A DNA stretch of 64,000 bases from an uncultured delta proteobacterium (GTDB lineage: Bacteria; Desulfobacterota; RBG-13-43-22): contig CAWJJC010000027.1 in the NCBI GenBank assembly GCA_963843145.1, positions 288,001-352,000 on the forward strand. Reading direction: 5' to 3'. The notes under the pieces were generated by a model. It worked only from the letters and a program-made list of their open reading frames with translations, was not told the DNA's origin and did not search any database. The position numbers were made by a program, and so were the translations under genes. Positions 4,119-15,953 of this stretch are shown here, piece after piece; position 1 is the first letter of the stretch; every line of letters begins with the position of its first letter.

Positions 4119-6639
4119 CTAGGGTTTGGGCAAAGAACCCAGCACCCGGCTTAATTCCTCCAGGGTATAAGGCTTGGCCATAACCCCTTTGAACCCGTGG
4201 GCCTGGTAGTCGGACATGACCGGGTCTGAGGAATACCCGCTGGAGGCAATGGCCCGTACCTCAGGATCAAATTCCAACAGTTTTTGTAACGCTTCCAAGC
4301 CGCCCATCCCGCCGGCTATGGTTAAATCCATAATCAAAAGATCAAAAGGTTGATCGATCTTTTTGGCCACCCGATAAATTTTAACCGCCTCGGCGCCGTC
4401 CTGCGCCTGCGCCACTTCAAAGCCCAGACGAGTAAGCATTTCTCCCAGGACTTCCCGGACAATGGCTTCGTCATCCATCACCAGGATTCGTCCCTGTCCC
4501 CTGACCAAAGGTAAAGACGTCTCTTCCTGAACCGCCGGAGTCTTCCCGGAGGCCGGCAGGGTGAGGCGAAAAGTAGCCCCTTTCCTGGGTTCCGATTCCA
4601 CCGTGATCAAACCGTCGTGTCTTTTAAGAATGGAATAAACCGTAGACAACCCCAGACCGCTGGCTCCCGGTTTGGTGCTAAAAAATGGATCAAAAACCTT
4701 GGAAAGGTTTTCTTTGGGGATCCCGATCCCCTGATCGCTAAACCAGATCTGGACATAGCGCCCTTCCCGGAGCGAAATCCCCTCCCCGGCGGTTATGGTT
4801 TTGTTTTCCATCCCCACCTGAAAAATCCCTCCTTCGGGCATAGCCTCGTCGGCGTTGATCACCAGGTTATGGATGACCTGCTGGAACTGACCCTGGTCAA
4901 AATCGACCGCCCAGATGTCGGCTGGAATGAGAAATTCCGCTTTCAACTTCGAGCCGCGCAGGGCAAAGGTAACCGCCTCCTGGACATATTCAGCCATGGA
5001 GGCCGTGGTTTTGACCGGCGCGCCTCCCCGGGAAAAGGTCAGTAACTGCTGGGTTAGTTCCCTGGCCAGATAAGAAGCCTTCTCGGCCTCATCCAAACGT
5101 TTTCGGACTTTTTCCGCGTCCTGAGCAAACATCTTGGCCAGGGAAATATTGCCCATAATGCCCGTCAAAATATTATTAAAATCGTGGGCGATGCCGCCGG
5201 CCAGGACCCCGATGGATTTAAGCTTTTCATATTTGAGCAATTCATCCGACAATCGCTGTTCATCCGTTATATCCCGGAAAACCAGCACCACGCCGATCAT
5301 GTTTCCGTTCCTGTCGCGGATCGGTGCTCCGCTGTCGGCGATTATTCTTTCCCGCCCGTTCCGATTGATCAGCACAGAAGGGGCCGCCAATAGTTCCGTT
5401 TGGCCGCTCAAAAGTACTTTTTCCACCGGGTTCTGGCACCGGTCCCGAGTCTTTTCGTCGACCAGGCAAAAAACCTCCTGCAATGACCGGCCGAAAGCCT
5501 CCTCCTGGCTCCAACCGGTCTGGTTTTCCGCTACCTGGTTGAGCATGACCACCCGCCCTTCCATATCCGTGGTGATCACGCCGTCCCCGATGGAGCGCAA
5601 GGTGACCGCCAGCCGTTCTTTTTCAGCCGCCAGTTCCTCCTCGGCCTTTTTCCGTTCGGAAATTTCCTCCACAATGCCCATGGCTCCCCTGATTCTCCCT
5701 TCCCGGCTGAACAGCGGGGCCGTGCGCATGGAGATTGAAATGTCGGCCGGGCCGGTGGTGGCGGAATAGGGTCCTTCGTAATACCCCGGCGTCCCGGCGA
5801 TGGCCATTTCTAGAGAAGGCAGCACTCTCTGGTCTTTCAAGGTTTTCATATCCAGATTGAGCAATTTTTCCCGGGTTGATCGAAGAATGGACTACAAAAC
5901 GATCGTTGCAGTCCGTGATATGCAACCGATGGTCATAATGAAAAACACCTACCGGAGATTGTTCAAAGAGCAGCCGATAGCGTTCCTCCTTCTCCTGAAG
6001 GTCCGACTCGGCCTTTCGGTAATCACTGATGACCCCCATCAGGGTCCGGGTTTCTTTATTGATCAATTGCCCCAATTTGGCGATCAATTCATTTTCGGAA
6101 TCTTCATGGGCGGCTACCGTGAGATTGCCGCCGGCGATCCGATTCAGGGTATCGTAGTGCTGACAAAGGCCCATGGCCAGCTCATGACTCTGGTCGACCA
6201 TTTCCTGCACGCTTTCACCCATCTGGTTGAGAACCTCTTCCAATTTTACCAGCATTTCATTGGGGCTGACTATTTTCACCCGGGCGGTCGGATCGCCCAG
6301 ACAGAGTTTCCGGACCATCTCCACGCTCTGCGAAAGGCCGATGCCCAAATCCAGATTCATGGCCTGCAATTCCCCATCCCGGTCCCGCAGTGCCCTCGTG
6401 ACCTCCTTGAATTGAAGGCCGACGACTCGCAGGATCTCCTCCAGGTCAGAAGGGTCGACCGTTTGTTTGAAATACTGGCATTCCAGGCACATTTCCATTT
6501 TTTCGATGAACAGCCCCTGGATCTCATTCCGGCAACAGGTCCCGGAACTCAGCCAGCAGCGGAACTCCTTCCGGATAAGAACCGGGCAGTTCTGTTCCGA
6601 ACAGCTAAAAAAATCCCAACAGTTGGTCCTCTCGGCCAT
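4119..6639 (-). CDS. Soluble hybrid histidine kinase: Cys-rich two-CW-like domain, HAMP-like repeats, PAS, PAS, HisKA/HATPase, REC (frameshift near 5891)
   Basis: ORFs 5623..6669 and 4119..5864 join into CNDRFVAILRSTREKLLNLD if one base near 5891 is removed; GIAHDFNN, GLGL, VMDDE; start MAERTNCWDFF has an AGGAGG RBS. Confidence 0.85.
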
Positions 6640-6669
6640 GGCCGGCCTCCTTTTATTCACGCCTGACAA

Positions 6670-6894
6670 TCAAAACTGAATCTGAATCTTTTTCCGATAA
6701 CCGCCTTCTTCCCGCACCGAAAGCAGAGTCTTCTCGAGACGTTCACAATAGACTCGCACATCCCGTTCAAAGGTGGGGCAATCCCCCAGTACTTCCAGGA
6801 TATCCCCCGGATTTAGATCCGGAGAAAGCACGGCGATTTTAAGCACCGGCTGCGGGCATTTTAAACCCAGGGTATTCAGGGCCACCATTCCCAT
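6670..6894 (-). CDS. tusA: TusA/SirA family sulfur carrier protein
   Basis: LNTLGLKCPQP motif, GDILEVLGD; 74 aa. Confidence 0.85.
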   Translation of the reverse strand: MGMVALNTLGLKCPQPVLKIAVLSPDLNPGDILEVLGDCPTFERDVRVYCERLEKTLLSVREEGGYRKKIQIQF

Positions 6895-6977
6895 TTTATC
6901 CTCCTCGGTTCATCCCGGCCCCTGACCGGGGGAGAACACGTCAATAAGAAAATAGCCTCTTTGATCTACCACATAGC

Positions 6978-7025
6978 AAATAATCAATAATCAATTGATT
7001 ATTAACAATTGAATATTGATTATTA
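6978..7025. repeat. AT-rich AATAATC heptamer inverted repeat (second copy at about 18878-18913)
   Basis: aataatcaataatcaattgattattaacaattg versus ttattaataatcaataatcaattgttaattattaac. Confidence 0.6.
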
Positions 7026-8520
7026 GGTCAATCCCTCGTCTTACGTCTGCCCCCTTATTTCTAGGGCTTTGAGCTACCCGCCCCGGGCCGGGCTGCCCAG
7101 TAAAAAATTTCACGGTCAGGGGCAACTGCCCGGGCAGGCAATGGGTGGCGCAGGCCAGGCAGGGATCATAGGCCCGGTAAACCATTTCAATCTGGTTAAG
7201 TAAGTCCTCCGAGGCCTGTCCTTTGTGAATCAATCCCTTAGCCGCCTTTTCAATGGCTAAGCACAAAGCCGCCATGCTGTTCTGGGTGGCGACCAGCAGC
7301 TTCATCTCTTGTACCACCCCCCGGTCATCGGTCCGATAGTGATGGATCAAGGTGCCCCGCGAGGCCTCGCAGACCCCAATGCCTTCGCGGGGAACGGCCG
7401 AGGGGATTCTTCGGACCTCCGGGTTGGTGAGTTCCGGATCGGCCGCCAACTCCTGCATCCGCTCGGCGGCATAGAGGGTTTCGATCAATCGGGCCCAATG
7501 GTAGGCCAAAGTATGGTGGACCGGCCGGGCTCCAAAACGCGAGATCATCCGTTCATACTCGGCTTGGGCCTCCGGGGTGGCCATGCCCCGGGAGGCGTTT
7601 AAGCGGCCCAGAGGCCCCGCCCGATAGATCCCGTTGGCCTTTCCTTCAAACCACCCTTTCCAGCCGATGGCCTTCAGATACGGTATCCGACTGTACGTCC
7701 AAGGCTCCGTCCTTTCTCCCAGGTGCCGCGAATAATCCCCTGGTTGAAAACAAGCGAGTTCTTCTCCTTCCGGGTCCACCACGCGGAGCCGGCCGTCATA
7801 GAAATTGACCCGTTGGTCCTGATCGACCAGACCCAGGTAATAGGTGGACTGAATAAAAATGGGGTCCAGAAATTTGGCCCAAATTTTTTTATTTTCCAGC
7901 GTCTGATGAAACAACGTCAGGCTTTCTCTGGCCAGGTCCAGGGCCAAGGGGGCCACCCGGATAGCTTCGGCCCGATCTTCCTGGTCCAGGGTTTTGGACA
8001 CTCCCCCCGGAAGGCCCACGACCGGGTAAAGGGGACCGCCGCTCAATCGGGTTTGAAGGCCCCGGACTTCTTTTCTAACTTGAATAACCTTTTCCCCCAA
8101 AGACCGGCCGACCCGTTTCATGACGCCCAGGAAGTTCCTTTCAGCGACGGGGGTCTCCTCACCCAGAAGCAGGTCGCATCCGCCCAGGAAGTAGAAATGG
8201 AGCAGATGGTCTTCAAAAATAAAGGCATTGAGAATCAACTCCCGAATTTTACGGGCCGCCGGCGGCGGAGCCACCTGAAACAAGTCGTCCAGGGCCTTAC
8301 TGGAGGCCAAGTGATGGGCGGTGGGGCAAACCCCACAGATTTTCTGGGTCAGCACCGGCAGCTCTTCGGCGGCCCGCCCTTCGCAAAATTTCTCGAAACC
8401 CCGCAAATCCGTGCTCTGAAAATAGGCCCGCTCGACCTCCCCCCGGTCATCCAGAAAAATGGAAATTTTTCCCTGACCTTCCAGGCGGGTCAAGGGGTCG
8501 ATGTCGATGCGTTTACCCAT
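6991..8520 (-). CDS. mvhA: [NiFe] hydrogenase large subunit, Mvh/group 3c type
   Basis: TRLEG, RGFEKF, KICGVCPTAH (L1), RAYDPCLACATH (L2) plus a C-terminal extension; the exact C-terminus is uncertain. Confidence 0.88.
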   Translation of the reverse strand: MGKRIDIDPLTRLEGQGKISIFLDDRGEVERAYFQSTDLRGFEKFCEGRAAEELPVLTQKICGVCPTAHHLASSKALDDLFQVAPPPAARKIRELILNAFIFEDHLLHFYFLGGCDLLLGEETPVAERNFLGVMKRVGRSLGEKVIQVRKEVRGLQTRLSGGPLYPVVGLPGGVSKTLDQEDRAEAIRVAPLALDLARESLTLFHQTLENKKIWAKFLDPIFIQSTYYLGLVDQDQRVNFYDGRLRVVDPEGEELACFQPGDYSRHLGERTEPWTYSRIPYLKAIGWKGWFEGKANGIYRAGPLGRLNASRGMATPEAQAEYERMISRFGARPVHHTLAYHWARLIETLYAAERMQELAADPELTNPEVRRIPSAVPREGIGVCEASRGTLIHHYRTDDRGVVQEMKLLVATQNSMAALCLAIEKAAKGLIHKGQASEDLLNQIEMVYRAYDPCLACATHCLPGQLPLTVKFFTGQPGPGRVAQSPRNKGADVRRGIDLIINIQLLIIN

Positions 8521-9469
8521 GAATTTTTTCTTTTACCTTGTGAGGAACCAGCGCTGCCGACAGCGAATACTGATAAGCCAGACCAACCGGGTCAATCCAG
8601 CCTTCCCTGAACTTCTGGAGAGCCTCTTCATCTGCGGCCTCACTCAAGGAAGCCAAAAAGGAAACCACCTTGGCCCCCTGGTCTTTCACCAATTCCAGAG
8701 GACCGAAACAGCCCCGGCAGGGCATGTTGGCGTTAAGGCAGCGGCCGGCACACCCCCCCCGAGTGGCCGGGCCCAGGCAAATGAGGCCTTCGGCCAGGAA
8801 ACAGCGGGACGGGTCCCAGATCTTTTGATGCAGACGACCAAAGGCATTCCAGGAAATCTTCTGCGGCCGGCTTTCCTTCCGGACGCAATAATGGCACAGG
8901 GCTTTGGGTTCACCGAAAACCCACCCTGGGGGGGGAAGCCGGTTCTCCAGGATGGCGGCCAGGACCTGGCGGTTCCAATCCGGGGTGGGCGGGCAGCCAG
9001 GGATGTAATAATCCACCGGAATCACCTGGTCTAAGGTTTTGACCCTGGAAGTTAGGCCCGGCAACGAGGGTTCTTGATTCGGCCGGGCATTTTCCGGGAC
9101 CGACCCCGGAGGTCTTTCCTGTTCACGGCCAGCCAGGATCTCCTCAGGGCCAAACAAATTCGCTAAGCCCACAACACCCCCTAAATGGGCGCAGGTTCCG
9201 TGGGCCACGATGAATTGCGATTTCTGGCGCAACAACCGAACGGTTTCCTCGTGTTCATCCAGGCGAATGGCCCCATTAATCCAAGAGGCTAAAAGGGCGC
9301 CATCCGCCAAGCGATCCAGGCGCTCCTTTTTATAATCCAAGGCAATCGGCCAGTATATGATTTCCGCCTCCCGGGTCAAGGACAGCAGGTCCGGCCCCAG
9401 GTCTAAAAGCGATTCTTCACAACCGCCGCAACTGGAGGTCCAGGTAAAAGCGATCTTGGGTTTTCCCAT
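8513..9469 (-). CDS. mvhG: [NiFe] hydrogenase small subunit, MvhG type
   Basis: SCGGCEES, GTCAHLGG, PGCPP, CLGPATRGGC, PCRGCFGP. Confidence 0.9.
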   Translation of the reverse strand: MGKPKIAFTWTSSCGGCEESLLDLGPDLLSLTREAEIIYWPIALDYKKERLDRLADGALLASWINGAIRLDEHEETVRLLRQKSQFIVAHGTCAHLGGVVGLANLFGPEEILAGREQERPPGSVPENARPNQEPSLPGLTSRVKTLDQVIPVDYYIPGCPPTPDWNRQVLAAILENRLPPPGWVFGEPKALCHYCVRKESRPQKISWNAFGRLHQKIWDPSRCFLAEGLICLGPATRGGCAGRCLNANMPCRGCFGPLELVKDQGAKVVSFLASLSEAADEEALQKFREGWIDPVGLAYQYSLSAALVPHKVKEKIHG

Positions 9470-9575
9470 AGTACTTACCTACCCCGAAAAACAACAAAAT
9501 GATATCCGTTATGATGTCTTCGTAAAAATCCCCAGGACTGTCTTTGCGAGGAGAGAAACGATTTTTTATAAGCAA

Positions 9576-9992
9576 CTATTTGTCTATTTCCAACGGGCCG
9601 GCATTCTGGATTTCTTCGGCCCATTGGGAGACAACCGTCGCGAATTTTTCGCCTTCCTGGGCGCTGATATTGGTCACTCTTAAGCGGAGGTCAGCAAAAC
9701 CCAATTGCCGCAGCAGGGGTTTCAAAAGTTCCGTCATCCGGATCATCTGAGCGTTTCCTTTCTGAAAATGGCAATGGCCCGGGGGACAACCGGCGATCAG
9801 CACCCCCTGAGCTCCCTGGCGGAAGGCCAACAGGACCCAGGCCGGGTCCATCCGGCCACTGCAAGGGAGACGGACGGCCTTAAAAAAGGGGGGAATGGTT
9901 TTACCCGCCCGGCCGGCGGCATCCGCCCCGGCATAGGCGCACCAGTCACATAAGAATCCGATCAACCGGGGTTCGAAACGTTCCCTCAACAC
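9576..9992 (-). CDS. mvhD: Methyl-viologen-reducing hydrogenase delta subunit (2Fe-2S)
   Basis: FLCDWCAYAGAD, LPCSGR, GCPPGHCHFQKGN. Confidence 0.92.
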   Translation of the reverse strand: MLRERFEPRLIGFLCDWCAYAGADAAGRAGKTIPPFFKAVRLPCSGRMDPAWVLLAFRQGAQGVLIAGCPPGHCHFQKGNAQMIRMTELLKPLLRQLGFADLRLRVTNISAQEGEKFATVVSQWAEEIQNAGPLEIDK

Positions 9993-11941
9993 AACAACCC
10001 TTTCACTTCCGCCGCGACCTGATCCACCTGAAAATGACGCGCCTCAATGGCTGCACTGGGACAGGCGGCGGCGCACAGGCCGCAGCCCCGGCACAAGGCC
10101 TCCCGGATCCGGGCCGCTCCTTCCCCCGGCCCAATTTCAATCGCCTGGTAAGGGCAGAGGTCGAGGCAGAGGTTGCACCCCGAACAGTTTTCTTCCCGGA
10201 CGACAGCCGTGGCTGTTTCCAGAATCAGCTTTTCACCGGGAATCAGTCGGGATAAAATCCGCCCGGCCGCGGCCTGGGCGTCCAGAATCGACTCGGGAAT
10301 AGTCTTCAGACCCCGGGCGCATCCGGCCGCAAAGATTCCCTCCACGACCGTGTCCACCGGTCCCCAGCGCATTTCCTCGGTCATCAAAAATCCTTCTTCC
10401 CCGAGGGGGATCTTCAGCCTTCCGGCCAATTCCCGGGATCCTTTAGACCCTCCCGGGGAGCCGCCGACGATGAGCAGGTCCATATAATCCAACTGGACTT
10501 CCCCCTGGCCGTTCCGGTACTCCAGCCGCACCTGGTTTTCTCTTTCAACCCATTGGATCGCGGCGGGATCGTTCAAGCGGATGAAGGACACCTCCGGTTC
10601 CCCCGATAGCCGTTGATAGCTCCAGTAAGCCTCCGGCCCCCATCCGGCCCGGTCCTCTAAATAAACCGAAACCCGGCTCTCGGGGATCTGGTCCCGGATC
10701 ATCCGGGCAAATTTAAAGGAAACCTCCAAAAAAACCGGGGGCACAACGCCCGACAGACCTGGGGTTTTCAAGCCGGAGCCGGCAAGAATCCCGATCCTCT
10801 GGGGGATCCGATCGGGGGGAGTCAGGATTCTTCCCGCGGTCGGTCCGTTGCTGTTTAACATCTCTTCCATCTCCATAGCGGAAAGGATTCGTCCTCTTTC
10901 AGCTCCCCGGATTGGCTTTAAAGAATCTTCATCGGTCAGGTCGAAACCGGTGGCTAGAACAATCGCCCCCACTTCTATTTCCAGCATCCCGTCTTCTTCC
11001 CCCAATTCAATGGCTCCGAAGGGGCAGGCCTCTTGGCAAGCCCGGCAGGGGTCCCCCTGAAAATGCCGGCAATAGGTCCGGTCGATGAAGGCGGCATTGG
11101 GCAAAGCGCCGGGCAGGGGTAAGCTGATGGCCTTCCTCCCGGGCCATCCTTTAAGTGGGGTTTGATCTATTTCCACCGGGCAGACTTCCAGGCAGGCCCC
11201 ACAGCCCAGGCAATTTTCCAGTTTGACCCCCCGGGCCCGGCGTTGCACGACGACCTCAAAATTTCCCCAAAACCCCCTGACCTGCCGTACCTGGCTCAAC
11301 AGGTGGACTTCGATCCGTTCCTGATGCATAACCGTATCCAGCAGCGGACTCAGCAGGCATGATCCGCATTCCATCTGAGGAAATATTTTTTCGTATAAAA
11401 CGGCTTTGCCCCCCACAAAAGGAGATTGTTCAACCAGATAAATCCGCCGTCCTTTCTGGGCCAAGTTCAGGGCGGCGGTTATCCCGGCGACACCGGCGCC
11501 GACCACCAGGACATCCGGGTTCATAGCGAGCTCTAAGGACGGGATCGGCTGATGGAGTCGAACTCTTTCCACAGCCGCCCGGATCAGCGACCGGGCTTTC
11601 TCCGTGGCCTCCGCCGGATCCGTGGTCACCCAGGCGCACTGCTCACGGAGATTGGCCATCTGTAGTTGATAGGGATTAAGGCCGGCCTTTTCGAGGACAC
11701 CCCGGAAGGTCGATTCATGCTCGCGAGGCGAACAGCCGCCCACCACGACCTTATCCAGGGCGGATTGTCGAATCTCCCGGGAAAGAAAGGATTGTCCCTC
11801 GGCCGAGCAGAGCAAGGTCTGGGTATGAACTTCAACCACTTCCGGCAACGTCCGGGCAAAGGAGGCCAATTCTTCCACCGGGATTTTTTCCCCGATGTTC
11901 GGCCCGCAGCTACAGATGAAAATGCCCAGTCTATCCGCCAT
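9986..11941 (-). CDS. hdrA: Heterodisulfide reductase subunit A-like flavoprotein (central Fe-S motif degenerate)
   Basis: CSCGPNI, GCSPREHE, NLREQCAW, GAGVAG, inserted and C-terminal 2x[4Fe-4S] ferredoxin motifs. Confidence 0.9.
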   Translation of the reverse strand: MADRLGIFICSCGPNIGEKIPVEELASFARTLPEVVEVHTQTLLCSAEGQSFLSREIRQSALDKVVVGGCSPREHESTFRGVLEKAGLNPYQLQMANLREQCAWVTTDPAEATEKARSLIRAAVERVRLHQPIPSLELAMNPDVLVVGAGVAGITAALNLAQKGRRIYLVEQSPFVGGKAVLYEKIFPQMECGSCLLSPLLDTVMHQERIEVHLLSQVRQVRGFWGNFEVVVQRRARGVKLENCLGCGACLEVCPVEIDQTPLKGWPGRKAISLPLPGALPNAAFIDRTYCRHFQGDPCRACQEACPFGAIELGEEDGMLEIEVGAIVLATGFDLTDEDSLKPIRGAERGRILSAMEMEEMLNSNGPTAGRILTPPDRIPQRIGILAGSGLKTPGLSGVVPPVFLEVSFKFARMIRDQIPESRVSVYLEDRAGWGPEAYWSYQRLSGEPEVSFIRLNDPAAIQWVERENQVRLEYRNGQGEVQLDYMDLLIVGGSPGGSKGSRELAGRLKIPLGEEGFLMTEEMRWGPVDTVVEGIFAAGCARGLKTIPESILDAQAAAGRILSRLIPGEKLILETATAVVREENCSGCNLCLDLCPYQAIEIGPGEGAARIREALCRGCGLCAAACPSAAIEARHFQVDQVAAEVKGLLC

Positions 11942-12338
11942 GAATCTATTTTCGGAATATTATAAAATTTCTTTAAATCCAAATGGTTGAATTGGTCTTG
12001 GCCCGCCTAAAAGTTAAAATATTTGGATTATGATAGGAGAAGAAAGGATTGTCAATCTTGTTTAAAATTCTCACTAAGCACCTAAAATCGAAGATCTGAC
12101 CAGCCGGGTATTCATTTGAAGCCATGAGCAAGAACAGGTTGTTCTATTCTTAAGAAAAATAGGTTGTTCGCCCTGCGGAGCGAGTGACCCCCATTCATGG
12201 CAGATTAATCTGGGAATTAGATAAAATTAGTAAGGAGTGCCGGCCAAGTTATCCTTGAATTTTCAACAAGTTCGTGGCATAATGACCATGATCGACGTTC
12301 CGAAACTAATTTAATAGGGGCAAAATTTACCCAGACAA

Positions 12339-14409
12339 ATGAATACTATCAAAACCTACTGCTCCCGCATGGATCACGGGGGCTGTGGCCTGCGGGTCAC
12401 GGTGGATCAAGGTAAAATCGTCAAAGTGCAGGGGGATCCCCAGTCCCCCAACAGCTTCGGCTATATCTGTCCCAAAGGCCTGGCCGGGGCCGCGCGGAAC
12501 ACCCACCCCGACCGGCTGACTACCCCGCTGATCCGGGAAGGCGATCGAGGAGCGGGCCGTTGGAAGGCCGTATCCTGGCCCGAGGCCCTGGAATTTATCG
12601 CCGGTCATTTGAATAAGATCCGGGAAGACTATGGCCCCCAAGCCGTGGTCTTCGCCCAGGGGGCGCCTAAAGGGCTGGAACATTTTGTCCTGATCCGCCT
12701 GGCCAACGTCTTCGGTTCCCCCAACGTCAGCGGCCCCCAGAACGTCTGCCACCTGCCCCGGGAACTGGCCGGAGTCATGACCGTCGGGTTTTTCCCGGTC
12801 CCGGACTATGATTCCCCCACGAGTCTAATCCTGAACTGGGGCAGCAACCTGCTGAAAACCAACGAGGAAGGCATCATTGCCTCCCGGCTGGTAGGCTCGC
12901 TGAAACGGGGGGCGGACCTGATCGTCATCGACCCCCGGCGTACCCACCTGGCCGAAATAGCCCAGAGTCACCTGCAGCTCCGTCCCGGGAGCGACGGGAT
13001 TCTGGCCCTCGGTCTGCTGCGAGTTATCCTGCGGGATGGCCTTTATGACCGAGAGTTCGTGGACCATTGGACCGTGGGTTTCGAGGAACTTAAGCAGCAG
13101 GTGGAACCCTATACGCCCGAACGGGTAGCCGAGCTGACCTGGCTCGAACCCCAGGAGATCCTCCACACCGCCTGGACTTACGCCACCTCCAAGCCGGCCT
13201 TGATTCAATGGGGAAACGCCCTCGAACATACGGAGAACAGCTTTCAGACCTGCCGGGCTGTACTCTGCCTCATGGCCGTGACCGGGAATTTGGACGTGCC
13301 GGGAGGGAATATCCTGCCGGAAATGCCCCCGGTGGCCCGCCTGGCTGATTTCGTCAAGGCTTCGCTCCTGCCGGATAAGGTTCAAAAAATGATCAGCCGG
13401 CACTATAAGCTCGCCCCTAATTTCATGATCGTTCCTCCCCCTCTGGTCCTGCAAGCCATTCGTCAGGCCAGGCCCTATCCGGTCCGGGCCATGTACGTCC
13501 AGGTGTCTAATCCCCTGCTGACCTACAGCCAGGCCCGGGAAACCTACGAGGCCTTAAAGGAGTTGGATTTCCTGGTGGTGGCGGATATCTTCATGACCCC
13601 TTCGGCTGCCCTGGCCGACGTGGTCCTCCCGGCCGCCACGGGTTTTGAATTTGACGACCTCGGCCACTATGGTCTGGCCCACGGGTGGATTTCGGCCAGG
13701 CCGAAGGTTGTTGATCCCCCGGGAGAGGCTTGGCCGGACATCCGGATCTTAAGCGAACTGGGGCGGGCCCTCGGCCACGGCGAACATTTCTGGGAGGATT
13801 ATCGCCAGGCCCTGGATGAGGTCCTGGCCCCATCCGGCCTGACTTATGAAAGATTCAAGGACCAGGGGCTGCTGAAAGGAAATATAAATTACTTTAACTA
13901 TCAGTCCAAAGGATTTAAAACTACAACACAAAAAGTAGAACTTTATTCAGCCCAGCTTTCTAAATGGGGCTTCGACCCGCTGCCGTCCTGCCCGGACCCC
14001 GTTCCGCCCAGTCTGGAATATCCGCTGCTGGCCACCAGCCGGAAGAGCCCTTATTTCTTCCATTCCGCCTATCGCCAGATAGAGTCTTTGAGAAAAAAGC
14101 ACCCGGACCCGGTAATCGAAATTCATCCCCTGGCGGCCCGGATTCTCGGTCTTCAGGACGGCGAATGGGCGGCCATCATCACCCCTCAGGGAAGAATTAC
14201 CCAGAAGGTCCGCTTCACCGAGGCCATCGATCCCCGGGTGGTCTATGTCGATTACGGCTGGTGGTTTCCAGAGGTCGGGCCGGAGCGGCTTTTTGACTGG
14301 GACCGATCCAATATCAATATCCTCACAGCCAATAGTCCTTTGAGGCCGGGAAATGGGAACCCCCTGCCTCCGCGCTTTTCCCTGCCGGGTAGAAAAATTA
14401 GACCTATGA
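12339..14409 (+). CDS. Molybdopterin-dependent oxidoreductase (DMSO reductase family); frameshift near 14343
   Basis: CSRMDHGGCG...CPKG, HPDRL, VIDPR, ADVVLPA, molybdopterin-binding C-terminal domain; removing one base gives the terminus NSPLGREMGTPCLRAFPCRVEKLDL*. Confidence 0.88.
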
Positions 14410-14423
14410 AAAGGACCTAGAGG

Positions 14424-15953
14424 CTAGGCCGGTTTATCCACTCCAATAAAATCGGCACTCACACAAATCCGATTCCGGCCACGACGCTTGGCCTCATACA
14501 AGGATTGGTCGGCGAGTTTGACCAATTCGTCTTTGGAGAGTTTGGATGCCGCTTGAAAGAAAGACAGGCCGAAACTCATGGTCACTTTGATAGGCCTTCC
14601 CTCATGCTCCACCACCTGAGACTCGACCAATTTCCTTAACCGCTCCACCACCGCCAGGGCTTCAGTGAATGGGGTCTCCGGCAGCAGGATACCGAATTCC
14701 TCTCCTCCATAACGGGCAACGATATCCGCGGTCCTGAGGAGGCTATTGAAACCGAGGGCGAGTTGACGCAGCACTTCATCGCCGGCGGGATGGCCGAAGG
14801 TATCGTTGACGTTTTTAAAATAATCAATATCGGCCAGGACCAGGGTCAAGGGGAGACGGTAGCGCAGGGCCCTCTGGTATTCCTGGTTGAGAAAATAGTA
14901 AAAACTTTTGTAATTAAAGAGCCCGGTCAAACCGTCCCGCATGACCTCGTCTTTCAGCGATTTAACCCGTTTCTGGTTTTCCAGCAACTCCTGCAAAAAG
15001 CGGTCGGAGATATGGATCAATTCCGTGCGGGCTTCATCGATTAATTTCAAGTAAGCCCCATCGGTTTCTAACTGGACTTCAAATAGATCGGATATCTCAT
15101 TAATATGCAGGAGTGCTTCTTCCAGCAGACTATCTGCCGGGATCTTTTGGTCAAAACCCCATTTGGTCAGATAACTCTTCATGGCTCCCAAGGAAAGGAT
15201 CCTCTTGCCGGAAAAGAATTCCACCGCCTGGGAGGCAATGAACAAGATCTTACCCAGCGTGTTGGCCGGTTTCATTGTGCCTTCAATCTGATCGGGAAAA
15301 TGGTGGATCTGGACGGATTCATAAAAAAACTTGGGCAACCCCCACTGCTTAATCAAGGCCCCTCCCAATTCCATGTGCGTGAAGCCCAGGATCTGCTTTT
15401 CCGCCTCATAATATTCGCACAGCGTATCCCTCCGCTCTTTGAGGACCAGGTGGTATTGTTTCGGCAGGGATCGGTTCAGACCCAGGCGTCCGATTTCATG
15501 AAGCAATCCTAAGGTGAAACTGTCTTCGGTCATGGAAGGAATAACTTCCTTGGCCAGCATTCGGCAAACCACGGCGGACATTACCGAATCCCTCCAGAAT
15601 TCGGCGTAATTGAACTCATCCTTCGTATTTGGCTTTACCAGGCGTAGCAGAGAAAAACTCAAGGCCACTTTTTTTACCGTATTGAGTCCCAGTAGTTTCA
15701 CCGCGTGGGAGACGGAGGTCACCTTTACCGGCAGGGCGTAGAAGGCTGAGTTGATCAATCCCAGTATTTTCCCGGACAGCGGCGGGTCGAGGGAAAGTAT
15801 CTTCCCCAGTTCATCCAAATGGGTGTTTTCGTTTTTAACCGCCTCCAGGATGCTCAAAGCGATCCCTGGAAGGGTAGGCAGGCTCTCCTGGTGCTTCAAA
15901 AGATTTTCGATTGGAGACGGATTCATGGGACTTTGCTCAAGGGAATAGCTCAA
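14424..15953 (-). CDS. HDOD-GGDEF diguanylate cyclase
   Basis: LPTLP, DPPLSGKIL, GLLHEIG (HDOD); DGLTGLFN, DIDYFKNVND, RYGGEEF. Confidence 0.92.
   Translation of the reverse strand: MSYSLEQSPMNPSPIENLLKHQESLPTLPGIALSILEAVKNENTHLDELGKILSLDPPLSGKILGLINSAFYALPVKVTSVSHAVKLLGLNTVKKVALSFSLLRLVKPNTKDEFNYAEFWRDSVMSAVVCRMLAKEVIPSMTEDSFTLGLLHEIGRLGLNRSLPKQYHLVLKERRDTLCEYYEAEKQILGFTHMELGGALIKQWGLPKFFYESVQIHHFPDQIEGTMKPANTLGKILFIASQAVEFFSGKRILSLGAMKSYLTKWGFDQKIPADSLLEEALLHINEISDLFEVQLETDGAYLKLIDEARTELIHISDRFLQELLENQKRVKSLKDEVMRDGLTGLFNYKSFYYFLNQEYQRALRYRLPLTLVLADIDYFKNVNDTFGHPAGDEVLRQLALGFNSLLRTADIVARYGGEEFGILLPETPFTEALAVVERLRKLVESQVVEHEGRPIKVTMSFGLSFFQAASKLSKDELVKLADQSLYEAKRRGRNRICVSADFIGVDKPA

Follow-up and report, generated by a model that had tools for sequence, protein, structure and literature searches.

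A hydrogenase-HdrA gene row followed by a three-cysteine TusA-family gene and a hybrid histidine kinase gene in an uncultured member of the Desulfobacterota

What could a hydrogenase and HdrA be doing in a gene row that lacks HdrB and HdrC and ends in a TusA-family protein and a sensor kinase? This question is raised by a locus in the window, the 64,000-nucleotide stretch of DNA from an uncultured delta proteobacterium that we analysed; the coordinates given below are window positions, all of them on the minus strand. Pfam and NCBIfam searches established the gene content of the whole row on this strand, hdrA, mvhD, mvhG, mvhA, tusA and a soluble hybrid kinase, the same six co-oriented genes that the initial annotation had named. 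They are tightly spaced, as had also been described: hdrA and mvhD overlap by 7 bp and mvhG and mvhA by 8 bp, and mvhD is separated from mvhG by 106 bp, mvhA from tusA by 96 bp and tusA from the kinase by 0-30 bp. About 90 bp upstream of hdrA there is a promoter-like site (12027..12055; TTGACA-17-CATAAT, 11/12 matches), which is a consensus match only. The reported absence of hdrB, hdrC and a maturation protease from the neighbourhood held as well: neither hdrB nor hdrC is found in the locus or on its contig, C27, where the CCG/HdrB search gave 0 matches and the genome's 44 were all on other contigs, and the only two HycI matches of the genome lie on contig C20. All genes of the row are under purifying selection (dN/dS 0.09-0.40). 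No RNA run was found to contain the row. Judged by sequence, MvhAGD is a group 3c-type [NiFe] hydrogenase joined with HdrA, and without HdrBC, to a two-gene signalling cassette; this cassette pairs a three-Cys protein of the TusA family with a cytoplasmic transducer, which in the window is a two-CW/di-HAMP/PAS hybrid histidine kinase. Our literature searches found no published description of a hydrogenase-HdrA-TusA-kinase arrangement.

The metal-binding cysteines of the three hydrogenase subunits are all retained. mvhA, coding for the [NiFe] large subunit (6991..8520; 509 aa; VhuA, 327.8 bits), has both NiFe cysteine motifs (Cys62/65 and Cys454/457); the small subunit gene mvhG (8513..9469; 318 aa; VhuG, 175 bits) keeps 12/12 conserved Cys columns and mvhD, coding for the [2Fe-2S] subunit (9576..9992; 138 aa; PF02662, E = 3e-41; FlpD, 140.6 bits), keeps its five conserved cysteines. 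MvhA was the only group 3-like large subunit detected when the genome was searched with PF00374, and Mvh may therefore well carry metabolic flux. Following DPCxxCxxH, MvhA has a C-terminal tail of 49 residues (6994..7140) that is divergent within the genus, being 35 aa long in L081 and 14 aa in L082. This extension is absent in five clade members (L004, L008, L018, L029 and L041, the last from the cultured Desulfosarcina widdelii PP31), and tails shorter than 11 aa were found in none of 58 MvhA proteins unlinked to tusA. In the portion of PMC7294309 available, an H2-sensing regulatory hydrogenase is likewise described as lacking the extension, and so are many non-sensing hydrogenases.

The first gene, hdrA (9986..11941; 651 aa), codes for an HdrA1-type flavoprotein, which scored 527.6 and 446 bits against the NCBIfam HdrA2 and HdrA models, each under the equivalog cut-off, and aligned over its full length with the solved HdrA 8rvu (E = 1e-133). 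Five of its six clusters retain their cysteine sets, and the FAD-region lysine equivalent to K409 and the C192/C195 pair are also kept; a redox-active role for the Cys pair beside the FAD of methanogen HdrA is proposed in the available portions of PMC13518236 and PMC13580544. The exception is the [4Fe-4S] cluster of the thioredoxin-reductase domain, where G, V, F and L stand at the positions of the four cysteines (residues 388-405; 10727..10780). The same loss is seen in L081 and L082, from the same genus, and the cysteines are kept in 14/15 tusA-linked HdrA and in 27/27 others. The other reading frames do not carry the missing motif either, and independent short-read contigs span 10571-10960 with no indel. 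By elimination from published descriptions, we infer that the lost cluster is the one passing electrons towards HdrC.

The product of tusA (6670..6894; 74 aa; PF01206, 53.4 bits vs a cut-off of 28.6) has three cysteines, C13 within CPxP, C39 within GDCPTFE and C50, all invariant in 46 sequences, and C39 stands where E. coli TusA has Asp45. This three-Cys TusA is a distinct subfamily. A census of 401 genomes of the phylum, with membership set at 46% identity or more, found 12 such genes in 10 genomes, all adjoining Mvh/HdrA genes and a transducer (7), a transducer only (3) or Mvh/HdrA genes only (2). No DsrE, rhodanese, LbpA or HdrB gene adjoins the window's tusA. Furthermore, among 80 related MvhA loci tusA comes directly after hydrogenase/HdrA genes in 15, and these include 11/11 rows of the window's own MvhA clade; separate MvhA lineages show the linkage too, with the genes in either order. 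Related genomes are non-independent samples in these counts; on the MvhA tree, the tusA label needs 2 to 4 changes vs a shuffled mean of 14.9; chance does not account for the link. The tusA-transducer pair beside hdrA/mvh, on whose conservation the initial annotation had staked its idea, is kept in several lineages. In addition, an HdrB-like gene occurs in 0/21 tusA-linked loci vs 15/65 others, so that HdrBC looks dispensable here. Gene arrangements vary: L029 has mvhGA-tusA-kinase with neither hdrA nor mvhD nearby, tusA is present with no transducer after it in L004, L018 and L022, L083, L085 and L088 each have a TusA-transducer pair but lack a hydrogenase within 10 kb, and L089 and L090 are Mvh-HdrA-TusA operons that lack a transducer. 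Both links can therefore exist separately, and H2 is not the sole possible input.

The last gene does code for a soluble hybrid kinase preceded by TusA, as initially described; in the window its coding sequence is divided between two ORFs that overlap (5623-6669 and 4119-5864), and is not one frame. A single extra base at approximately 5893, which two relatives in the genus do not have and which is seen as a one-base gap in blastn against the 96%-identical L001, breaks the frame, and the kinase of L082 is a single intact frame of 860 codons. The likely start codon is the ATG at 6639. Pfam and NCBIfam recognized two-CW, PAS, HisKA, HATPase and REC domains, with PAS, HisKA, HATPase_c and the receiver within 4119..5892. 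The Cys-rich two-CW domain (residues 16-70; 6460..6624) scored 30.9 bits with NF045718, under the cut-off of 35, and across 75 aligned relatives six of its cysteines are invariant (C17, C23, C28, C38, C61 and C64) and a seventh, C46, almost invariant. As a general sensor domain, two-CW is present in 136/401 genomes, chiefly in small proteins, and it is absent from five TusA-paired transducers. The Cys-rich kinase had been proposed as a possible reader of the TusA state; its pairing with TusA stands, but the conserved reader would be a di-HAMP-like module and not two-CW. Alignments and an AF2 model place this input module, the predicted TusA docking site, at residues 100-218 (6016..6372), with a helix-connector-helix-connector-helix layout (mean pLDDT 89.8) whose best structural likeness is the Aer2 poly-HAMP (TMt 0.62, rmsd 3.2-3.3 A). 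It gets no Pfam HAMP score and has its own conserved motif, SHE..A.GL.EH. By sequence comparison, the module is common to TusA-paired transducers, namely kinases, MCPs and one STAS protein. Its profile found 11 genes in the 401 genomes, nine of them adjoining a three-Cys TusA, and across the 80 loci it matched only genes just downstream of tusA; since the profile was built from TusA-adjacent proteins, only the few extra matches and the MCP of L003, which lay outside the profile-building set and matched with E = 1.8e-26, are informative. The outputs attached to the module are kinases, MCPs accompanied by che operons and a partner-switching set of STAS/SpoIIE type, and GGDEF outputs were seen among the best 150 database matches.

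The initial annotation had also proposed modelling HdrA, TusA and the kinase N-domain together, and in a model of the last two TusA was predicted to bind the kinase input region. Two copies of kinase residues 1-225 with two of TusA scored 0.74, vs 0.01 for the best of three controls, which is above a pass mark reached by 116/157 solved complexes and 2/215 mismatched pairs, although we used custom alignments and two copies per chain and the tool was calibrated otherwise. The runs had at least 94% of contacts in common, with a partner pLDDT of at least 89. The predicted interface comprises TusA residues 12-25, 39-41 and 45-53 and kinase residues 121-127, 156-176 and 193-198, and takes in the invariant residues of both TusA and the module. 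TusA is thus predicted to place its cysteine face across the dimeric di-HAMP-like module.

We tentatively favour the reading that the kinase responds to the thiol or persulfide state of TusA, which Mvh-HdrA would set. TusA would be the hinge, a dedicated partner of transducers bearing the di-HAMP-like input module. H2 would be oxidised by Mvh, and MvhG and then MvhD would pass electrons to the flavin of HdrA. HdrA, acting as a thioredoxin-reductase-like enzyme with the C192/C195 pair retained beside its flavin, could then determine whether TusA is in a thiol, disulfide or persulfide state, and this would govern whether or how the module is bound and thereby kinase activity. H2 dependence, the direction of signalling, the chemistry of TusA and the HdrA-TusA contact are the parts that we infer.

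A less probable reading is a catabolic, H2-oxidising Mvh-HdrA in which the sulfane sulfur or disulfide of TusA is a high-potential acceptor replacing HdrBC and the heterodisulfide, ferredoxin possibly being reduced as well, while the transducer is a general cytoplasmic sulfane-sulfur or thiol-redox sensor that reports on this acceptor and not on H2. The hydrogenase-free TusA-transducer pairs fit it, as do the transducer-less L089, which, like the MCP-containing L091, encodes a HycI protease of its own and an MvhA whose tail is normal, the finding of no group 3-like hydrogenase other than Mvh in the genome, and a canonical tusA-mvhD-hdrA-hdrA-hdrC-hdrB-dsrE cluster (L096) in the same genome; relays from TusA/DsrE into Hdr-like complexes are an established feature of sulfur oxidisers, according to the available part of PMC11094781. 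However, no disulfide-reducing site is known without HdrB, in the genus the flavin domain of HdrA has lost its Fe-S exit, the MvhA of five clade members is extension-less, and in G066 phosphorelay genes are interleaved with those of the hydrogenase subunits (tusA-kinase-GGDEF-mvhG-kinase-REC-mvhA-hdrA-mvhD). These features weaken a purely catabolic role.

It is improbable that this is an ordinary bifurcating hydrogenase, in which HdrA-MvhDGA works with HdrBC, HdrD or another acceptor module encoded elsewhere and tusA and the kinase are neighbours, at most transcriptional regulators. The genome does hold the 44 CCG-domain and 15 MvhD-like matches elsewhere, 50/65 unlinked MvhA loci also have no nearby HdrB-like gene by the same test, and HdrA retains the K409-equivalent Lys and the cysteines of its other clusters, but the recurrent tusA linkage, the near one-to-one co-occurrence of the TusA and module families, the passing TusA-kinase complex model and the cluster cysteines missing in the window, L081 and L082 all speak against it. 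Lastly, a system being lost by the genus is very improbable: the frameshifted kinase, the HdrA lacking one cluster, the degenerate MvhA tail, 16 altered highly conserved MvhA columns, the long MvhA-tree branch (0.6) of the window and L001 and, in L001/L081, a different kinase indel and split hdrA and mvhG frames would agree with decay, but purifying selection acts on all the genes and also on the portion of the kinase that follows the break (dN/dS 0.09-0.11), the L082 kinase is intact, the hydrogenase metal ligands are kept and the L001/L081 split frames probably fit assembly errors.

The signalling reading has a close parallel in the group 2b H2 sensors HoxBC-HoxJ and HupUV-HupT, where a cytoplasmic [NiFe] hydrogenase is likewise encoded with a soluble histidine kinase. 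As in HoxC, the large subunit stops at the last His in the five extension-less clade members, and L029 consists only of small and large subunits, TusA and a kinase; the window's own MvhA, in contrast, retains its tail. The large subunit here is VhuA/MvhA-like and not group 2b, MvhD and HdrA are usually present, TusA intervenes between hydrogenase and transducer, and outputs include MCPs and STAS proteins, with GGDEF among database matches. HoxJ uses a PAS domain, whereas the predicted contact here is the di-HAMP module. Compared with methanogen MvhAGD-HdrABC (PDB 5ODC, 8RVU), the locus has the same MvhA, MvhG, MvhD and HdrA subunit families, with the FAD region and adjacent Cys pair of HdrA, but differs in lacking HdrB and HdrC in locus and contig, in the thioredoxin-reductase-domain cluster lost in the genus and in the added tusA and transducer.

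Small accessory proteins such as Sda, KipI, FixT and PII (on NtrB) gate histidine kinases. Here too a small separate protein is predicted to bind and modulate a non-catalytic region of the kinase, but in this case a thiol protein with the TusA fold would bind a HAMP array, and TusA also serves MCP and STAS transducers, the GGDEF forms of the module being known from database matches only. Aer2 of Pseudomonas aeruginosa (PDB 3LNR/4I3M) is similarly a cytoplasmic receptor in which HAMP units are concatenated ahead of PAS/output domains, although the window's module is unscored by Pfam HAMP, carries its own motif and is itself the predicted docking site of a partner. sHdr systems also encode a CPxP-bearing TusA-family protein with Hdr-type proteins, as far as the available part of PMC11094781 describes them; unlike in their TusA/DsrE relay, the TusA found here has the third invariant Cys at the Asp45 position, adjoins no DsrE, rhodanese, LbpA or HdrB and pairs with signal transducers. 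The recurrence of TusA and a sensor kinase behind hydrogenase-HdrA genes in many anaerobes points to an undescribed form of hydrogen or sulfur/redox sensing.

The six genes of the cluster are encoded one behind another on the minus strand of the window: hdrA (9986-11941), mvhD (9576-9992), mvhG (8513-9469), mvhA (6991-8520), tusA (6670-6894) and a hybrid kinase gene running from 6669, or more likely from an ATG at 6639, to 4119. hdrA, mvhG and mvhA were assigned by Pfam/NCBIfam family matches, mvhD by Pfam PF02662 (140.6 bits), tusA by PF01206 (53.4 bits against a gathering score of 28.6) and the kinase by its Pfam domains. hdrA and mvhD overlap by 7 bp and mvhG and mvhA by 8 bp; 106 bp separate mvhD from mvhG, 96 bp mvhA from tusA and 0-30 bp tusA from the kinase gene. 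A strong promoter-like site was found about 90 bp upstream of hdrA; terminator-like sites were at chance level (13 found against 14.3 expected) and are uninformative on transcript ends, and no RNA run was listed as containing the locus. MvhA has both nickel-binding motifs, the N-terminal RxCGxC (Cys62/65) and the C-terminal DPCxxCxxH (Cys454/457), and every aligned relative conserves these cysteines. The best NCBIfam matches were VhuA (327.8 bits), VhuG (175.1 bits) and VhuD (90.1 bits), all below the equivalog or exception cut-offs (800, 450 and 215), and full-length HdrA and MvhD (PF02662) are encoded together with the hydrogenase; on these sub-cut-off matches and this gene context the enzyme is probably of group 3c. 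Elsewhere in the genome the [NiFe] large subunits found were a group 1-like enzyme on contig C20 and a group 4-like gene on C25, MvhA being otherwise the sole one, and both HycI protease matches were on C20. A molybdopterin oxidoreductase gene (12339-14420, plus strand, 693 aa) diverges from hdrA and is followed by an HDOD-GGDEF protein gene (14424-15953, minus strand); both are kept beside the operon in same-genus loci only, and the oxidoreductase was rejected as a member of the system.

The pairing of tusA with a transducer beside hdrA and mvh, which the initial annotation had put forward as part of a candidate sensing operon, recurs elsewhere. Among the best 80 of at least 597 loci related by MvhA, tusA directly follows the hydrogenase/HdrA genes in 15, and in nine of these a same-strand transducer gene comes right after tusA (L001, L002, where only its start is present, L003, L005, L008, L017, L023, L029 and L041). 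The transducers with a readable C-terminus in L001, L008, L029 and L041 are hybrid kinases, those of L003 and L005 are methyl-accepting chemotaxis proteins (MCPs) followed by che genes, and in L002, L017 and L023 the contig ends before any kinase domain. Of the other loci, L043 has a convergent MCP by tusA, L021 a fragment of no assignable kind, L004, L018 and L022 no transducer after tusA, and L020 ends too early. The MCP after tusA in L003 (7774-9357) carries a PAS domain with a short Cys-rich stretch at residues ~70-90, seen by eye, that may be a metal or redox site. Two gene orders were found among the tusA-linked loci, hdrA-mvhD-mvhG-mvhA-tusA and mvhG-mvhA-hdrA-mvhD-tusA; in addition, L029 reads mvhG-mvhA-tusA-kinase, with neither hdrA nor mvhD within 9 kb upstream, and one genome (G066) interleaves both sets on one strand as kinase-tusA-kinase-GGDEF-mvhG-kinase-REC-mvhA-hdrA-mvhD. 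On an MvhA tree of 80 rows, from which the fragment L019 was left out, the supported clade of the window holds 11 rows, all with tusA, and three more tusA-linked groups lie elsewhere; the tusA label requires four changes, at least two of them forced by supported branches, against a mean of 14.9 for shuffled labels. Sampling covered the best 80 MvhA loci and 401 genomes of the phylum, and many of the loci come from contigs of metagenome-assembled genomes, with taxon labels that are possibly mistaken.

The tusA products share three invariant cysteines, C13 (CPxP, here within LKCPQP), C39 (GDCPTFE) and C50; compared with E. coli TusA, C13 corresponds to Cys19 and C50 to Cys56, while C39 stands in place of Asp45. 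This three-Cys subfamily comprises 919 clusters at E <= 1e-10, of which the best 120 are all at least 66% identical to the TusA of the window and almost all 74 residues long, and a search for TusA fusions returned one 131-aa protein and no domain fusions. Our census of the 401 genomes found 12 genes of at least 46% identity in 10 genomes, including the one under study, and then a gap, the remaining matches reaching at most 41%. Seven of the 12 adjoin both Mvh/HdrA and a transducer (the window, L081, L082, L084, L087, L091 and L086/L098), three a transducer without Mvh/HdrA (L083, L085, which is inside a che operon, and L088) and two Mvh/HdrA without a transducer (L089 and L090). By gene linkage TusA has two sorts of partner, HdrA/Mvh and the di-HAMP transducers described below, and wherever both occur it lies between them. 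Three of these paralogues occur in a single genome (G255), where L083, L085 and L089 encode proteins 74%, 62% and 55% identical to the TusA of the window; two are paired with di-HAMP kinases, one of them inside the che operon, and the third ends an mvhGA-hycI-hdrA-mvhD cluster. The genome under study has four or five further TusA-family genes, one of them heading a canonical hdr cluster (L096), and the TusA of the window is therefore a specialised paralogue.

The TusA-paired transducers have in common a module of about 120 residues made of two helix-connector-helix units, with the conserved motifs GLSEVFEAL..GDP.VRI and SHE.A.GL.EH.D.L.R...GDL.AR. The AlphaFold2 model of the module (residues 100-218 of the kinase) has a mean pLDDT of 89.8 and shows the two units; Pfam HAMP gave no match on the kinase at E <= 0.01, Foldseek against the PDB gave nothing at E <= 0.001, and the nearest fold was the Aer2 poly-HAMP (TMt 0.62, but Foldseek E 0.08-0.7). 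A profile of the module matched 11 genes in the 401 genomes, nine of them adjoining a three-Cys TusA; as the profile was built from TusA-adjacent proteins these nine are matched by construction, and what is informative is the scarcity of other matches, together with the L003 result given below. The two extra matches were a che-operon kinase of G066, 15 kb from tusA, and, weakly, an MCP of G039. Furthermore, the L003 MCP, outside the profile-building set, matched at E = 1.8e-26, and across the 80 MvhA loci there was no match among genes not directly downstream of tusA. Among 1.84 billion representatives 868 matched the module at E <= 0.001, 191 of them at E <= 1e-30; by output, the best 150 were 78 kinases, 13 GGDEF proteins and 4 MCPs, the other 55 being partial or of another kind. 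In L087 a TusA-adjacent protein has a single unit of the module joined to a STAS domain, and the genes after it encode another STAS protein and a SpoIIE phosphatase. The Cys-rich two-CW domain N-terminal to the module was rejected as the reader of TusA: it is absent from five paired transducers (L083, L086, L088, L087 and L005) and common elsewhere, occurring in 136 of the 401 genomes, mainly in small proteins. On the kinase, two-CW (NF045718) scored 30.9 bits against a cut-off of 35 and 33.1 bits in the genome search, with a Cys pattern invariant in 75 relatives, and it was found upstream of the module in 70 of the best 150 module matches by single-sequence phmmer. The two other two-CW proteins of the genome (131 and 151 aa; C25, L092:2999-10352, and C21, L093:9176-9628) have an N-terminal part that looks helix-turn-helix-like by eye and has no Pfam match, and one of their genes lies about 2 kb downstream of a group 4-like hydrogenase/Nuo-like membrane cluster.

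A direct contact between TusA and the module is predicted. Two copies of kinase residues 1-225 (75-row alignment) modelled with two copies of TusA gave a complex score of 0.74, whereas the best of three controls scored 0.01; 116 of 157 solved complexes reached the pass mark, as did 2 of 215 mismatched pairs, in a calibration whose set-up differs from that of this job, which used its own alignments and two copies per chain. The three runs agreed in at least 94% of contacts, with partner pLDDT of at least 89. On TusA the predicted face comprises residues 12-25, 39-41 and 45-53, with each of the three cysteines in or next to it, and on the module residues 121-127, 156-176 and 193-198; in the model the interface takes in the most conserved positions of both partners, each TusA contacts both kinase protomers, and the two-CW domain is not among the listed interface residues. 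We know of no solved TusA-HAMP complex, so the model's pass is unlikely to reproduce a structure already solved.

As the simplest account we favour, with a little less than even confidence, the reading that TusA is a small protein messenger, its cysteine state set by Mvh-HdrA or by other chemistry and read by the di-HAMP array. In the H2-linked versions Mvh-HdrA would set this state, in the hydrogenase-free versions other cellular chemistry would do so, and binding of TusA to the di-HAMP array would read it out. The Cys pair beside the FAD of HdrA, C192/C195, is retained, and two recent structure papers propose such a pair to be redox-active or ligand-binding (PMC13580544, PMC13518236); HdrA could thus conceivably react directly, by thiol-disulfide chemistry, with a protein like TusA. 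At ten positions of HdrA (143, 149, 165, 184, 206, 278, 280, 296, 560 and 569 in window numbering) a residue is found in at least 85% of the tusA-linked and at most 25% of the other HdrA sequences, and several of these flank the FAD motif and the C192/C195 loop. The fuller proposal, which we regard as tentative and on balance doubtful, is an undescribed cytoplasmic pathway in which an HdrBC-less group 3c hydrogenase-HdrA would write the thiol or persulfide state of TusA according to H2 and cellular reductant, and di-HAMP receptors would read TusA directly and pass the signal to phosphorelays, chemotaxis and partner-switching, as well as to c-di-GMP synthesis if the GGDEF forms pair likewise.

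The main alternative, though one to which we give limited credence, is that Mvh-HdrA serves catabolism and has sulfur carried on TusA as its acceptor; the TusA-transducer contact would be kept, and the signal would be the state of the acceptor and not H2. 

In sequence the MvhA of the window falls outside the HupV/HoxC family, its best matches being the VhuA, NiFeSe and Frh families and no sensor family. Five relatives within its clade (L004, L008, L018, L029 and L041) have an MvhA that stops exactly at DPCxxCxxH, as against none of 58 unlinked MvhA sequences with a tail shorter than 11 residues; within the genus of the window the tails are 49 (the window), 35 and 14 residues long and differ in sequence. 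The H2-sensing regulatory hydrogenase likewise has no C-terminal extension, but many other hydrogenases are without one too (PMC7294309). By this analogy the five relatives are a faint pointer to sensing; unlike them and the group 2b regulatory enzyme, the MvhA of the window has its 49-aa tail.

A second alternative, which we consider improbable, is an ordinary bifurcating enzyme served by a distant HdrBC. Contig C27 has no CCG/HdrB match, and a partner encoded elsewhere is possible; by single-sequence search an HdrB-like gene was found in none of 21 tusA-linked loci against 15 of 65 other loci, related loci being non-independent. In addition, the window and its two congeners (L081 and L082) lack HdrA cysteines 388, 400, 404 and 405, which are kept in 14 of 15 other tusA-linked and 27 of 27 unlinked HdrA sequences, while the Cys sets of the other five of the six [4Fe-4S] clusters are present in the window's HdrA. 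A local double frameshift was rejected as the origin of this loss, the motif being in no other frame, and independent short-read contigs over the stretch have no indels. The lost cysteines belong to the thioredoxin-reductase domain, immediately ahead of the Lys that corresponds to K409; this domain binds FAD and one Fe-S cluster (PMC12054007). Three further papers assign HA3/A3 to a terminal domain that is mobile, HA5/HA6 to the branch leading to ferredoxin and HA4 to the route leading from FAD to HdrC/HdrB (PMC12350162, PMC13580544, PMC13518236). By elimination from these, the cluster lost would be HA4, the exit towards HdrBC. 

The genome has a second Hdr cluster, all on one strand (G000:C22:115284-121341; L096:6284-12341), with a canonical tusA, an mvhD-like gene, a 448-aa HdrA-like gene, a 637-aa hdrA, a 111-aa ORF, an hdrC-like gene, hdrB (CCG) and a dsrE-like gene; its make-up suggests an HdrABC supplied by a sulfur relay. 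On C16 (L097:4260-7167) a further TusA-family gene adjoins that of an Hdr-type protein: a 183-aa ORF, this gene and those of a membrane protein and of a 417-aa Cys-rich protein lie near a CCG-domain match. Five of 15 MvhD/FlpD matches in the genome have one in-frame TGA each (e.g. G000:C27:461274-461642 and C20:527526-527885) and are possibly selenocysteine-containing MvhD paralogues.

Lastly, a decaying locus is very improbable: the kinase gene of the window is broken, but all metal ligands of MvhA, MvhG and MvhD are kept and dN/dS values lie at 0.16-0.40 in the enzyme genes and at 0.15-0.24 in tusA. The kinase consists of two overlapping ORFs in which HisKA, HATPase_c and receiver domains are all present by Pfam but not in one open frame, and compared with the 96%-identical L001 the window has one extra base at ~5893, L001 itself having a different indel farther upstream in the gene. 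The frame is intact in L082 (one of 860 codons), L008, L029 and L041, and downstream of the break dN/dS is 0.11 against L081 and 0.09 against L082, and the gene is therefore functional in this lineage. Either the break arose very recently or the assembly is wrong at this point; among the public short-read contig pieces listed (4 runs) none crosses 5893, the nearest beginning at 5909. Read through the break by analogy with L082, L008 and L041, the architecture would be two-CW, di-HAMP-like module, PAS, PAS, HisKA, HATPase and REC.

To our knowledge, H2 sensors have been characterised only among the group 2b regulatory hydrogenases, in aerobic or facultative H2 oxidisers, and little is known of how strict anaerobes detect H2 or the redox and sulfur state of their cytoplasm. 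No description of the tusA-kinase-hydrogenase arrangement was found in open-access text. The system is a testable candidate, with three purifiable parts and a cultured carrier, Desulfosarcina widdelii PP31 (L041). The reading of TusA as a messenger offers a likely role for the three-Cys TusA subfamily, for an unnamed input module and for bacterial HdrA-Mvh clusters without HdrBC, and a TusA-fold protein on a HAMP array, as predicted by the complex model, would be a new kind of receptor input. If true, the fuller pathway proposed above would amount to a protein-borne redox messenger joining H2 metabolism to behaviour in anaerobes.
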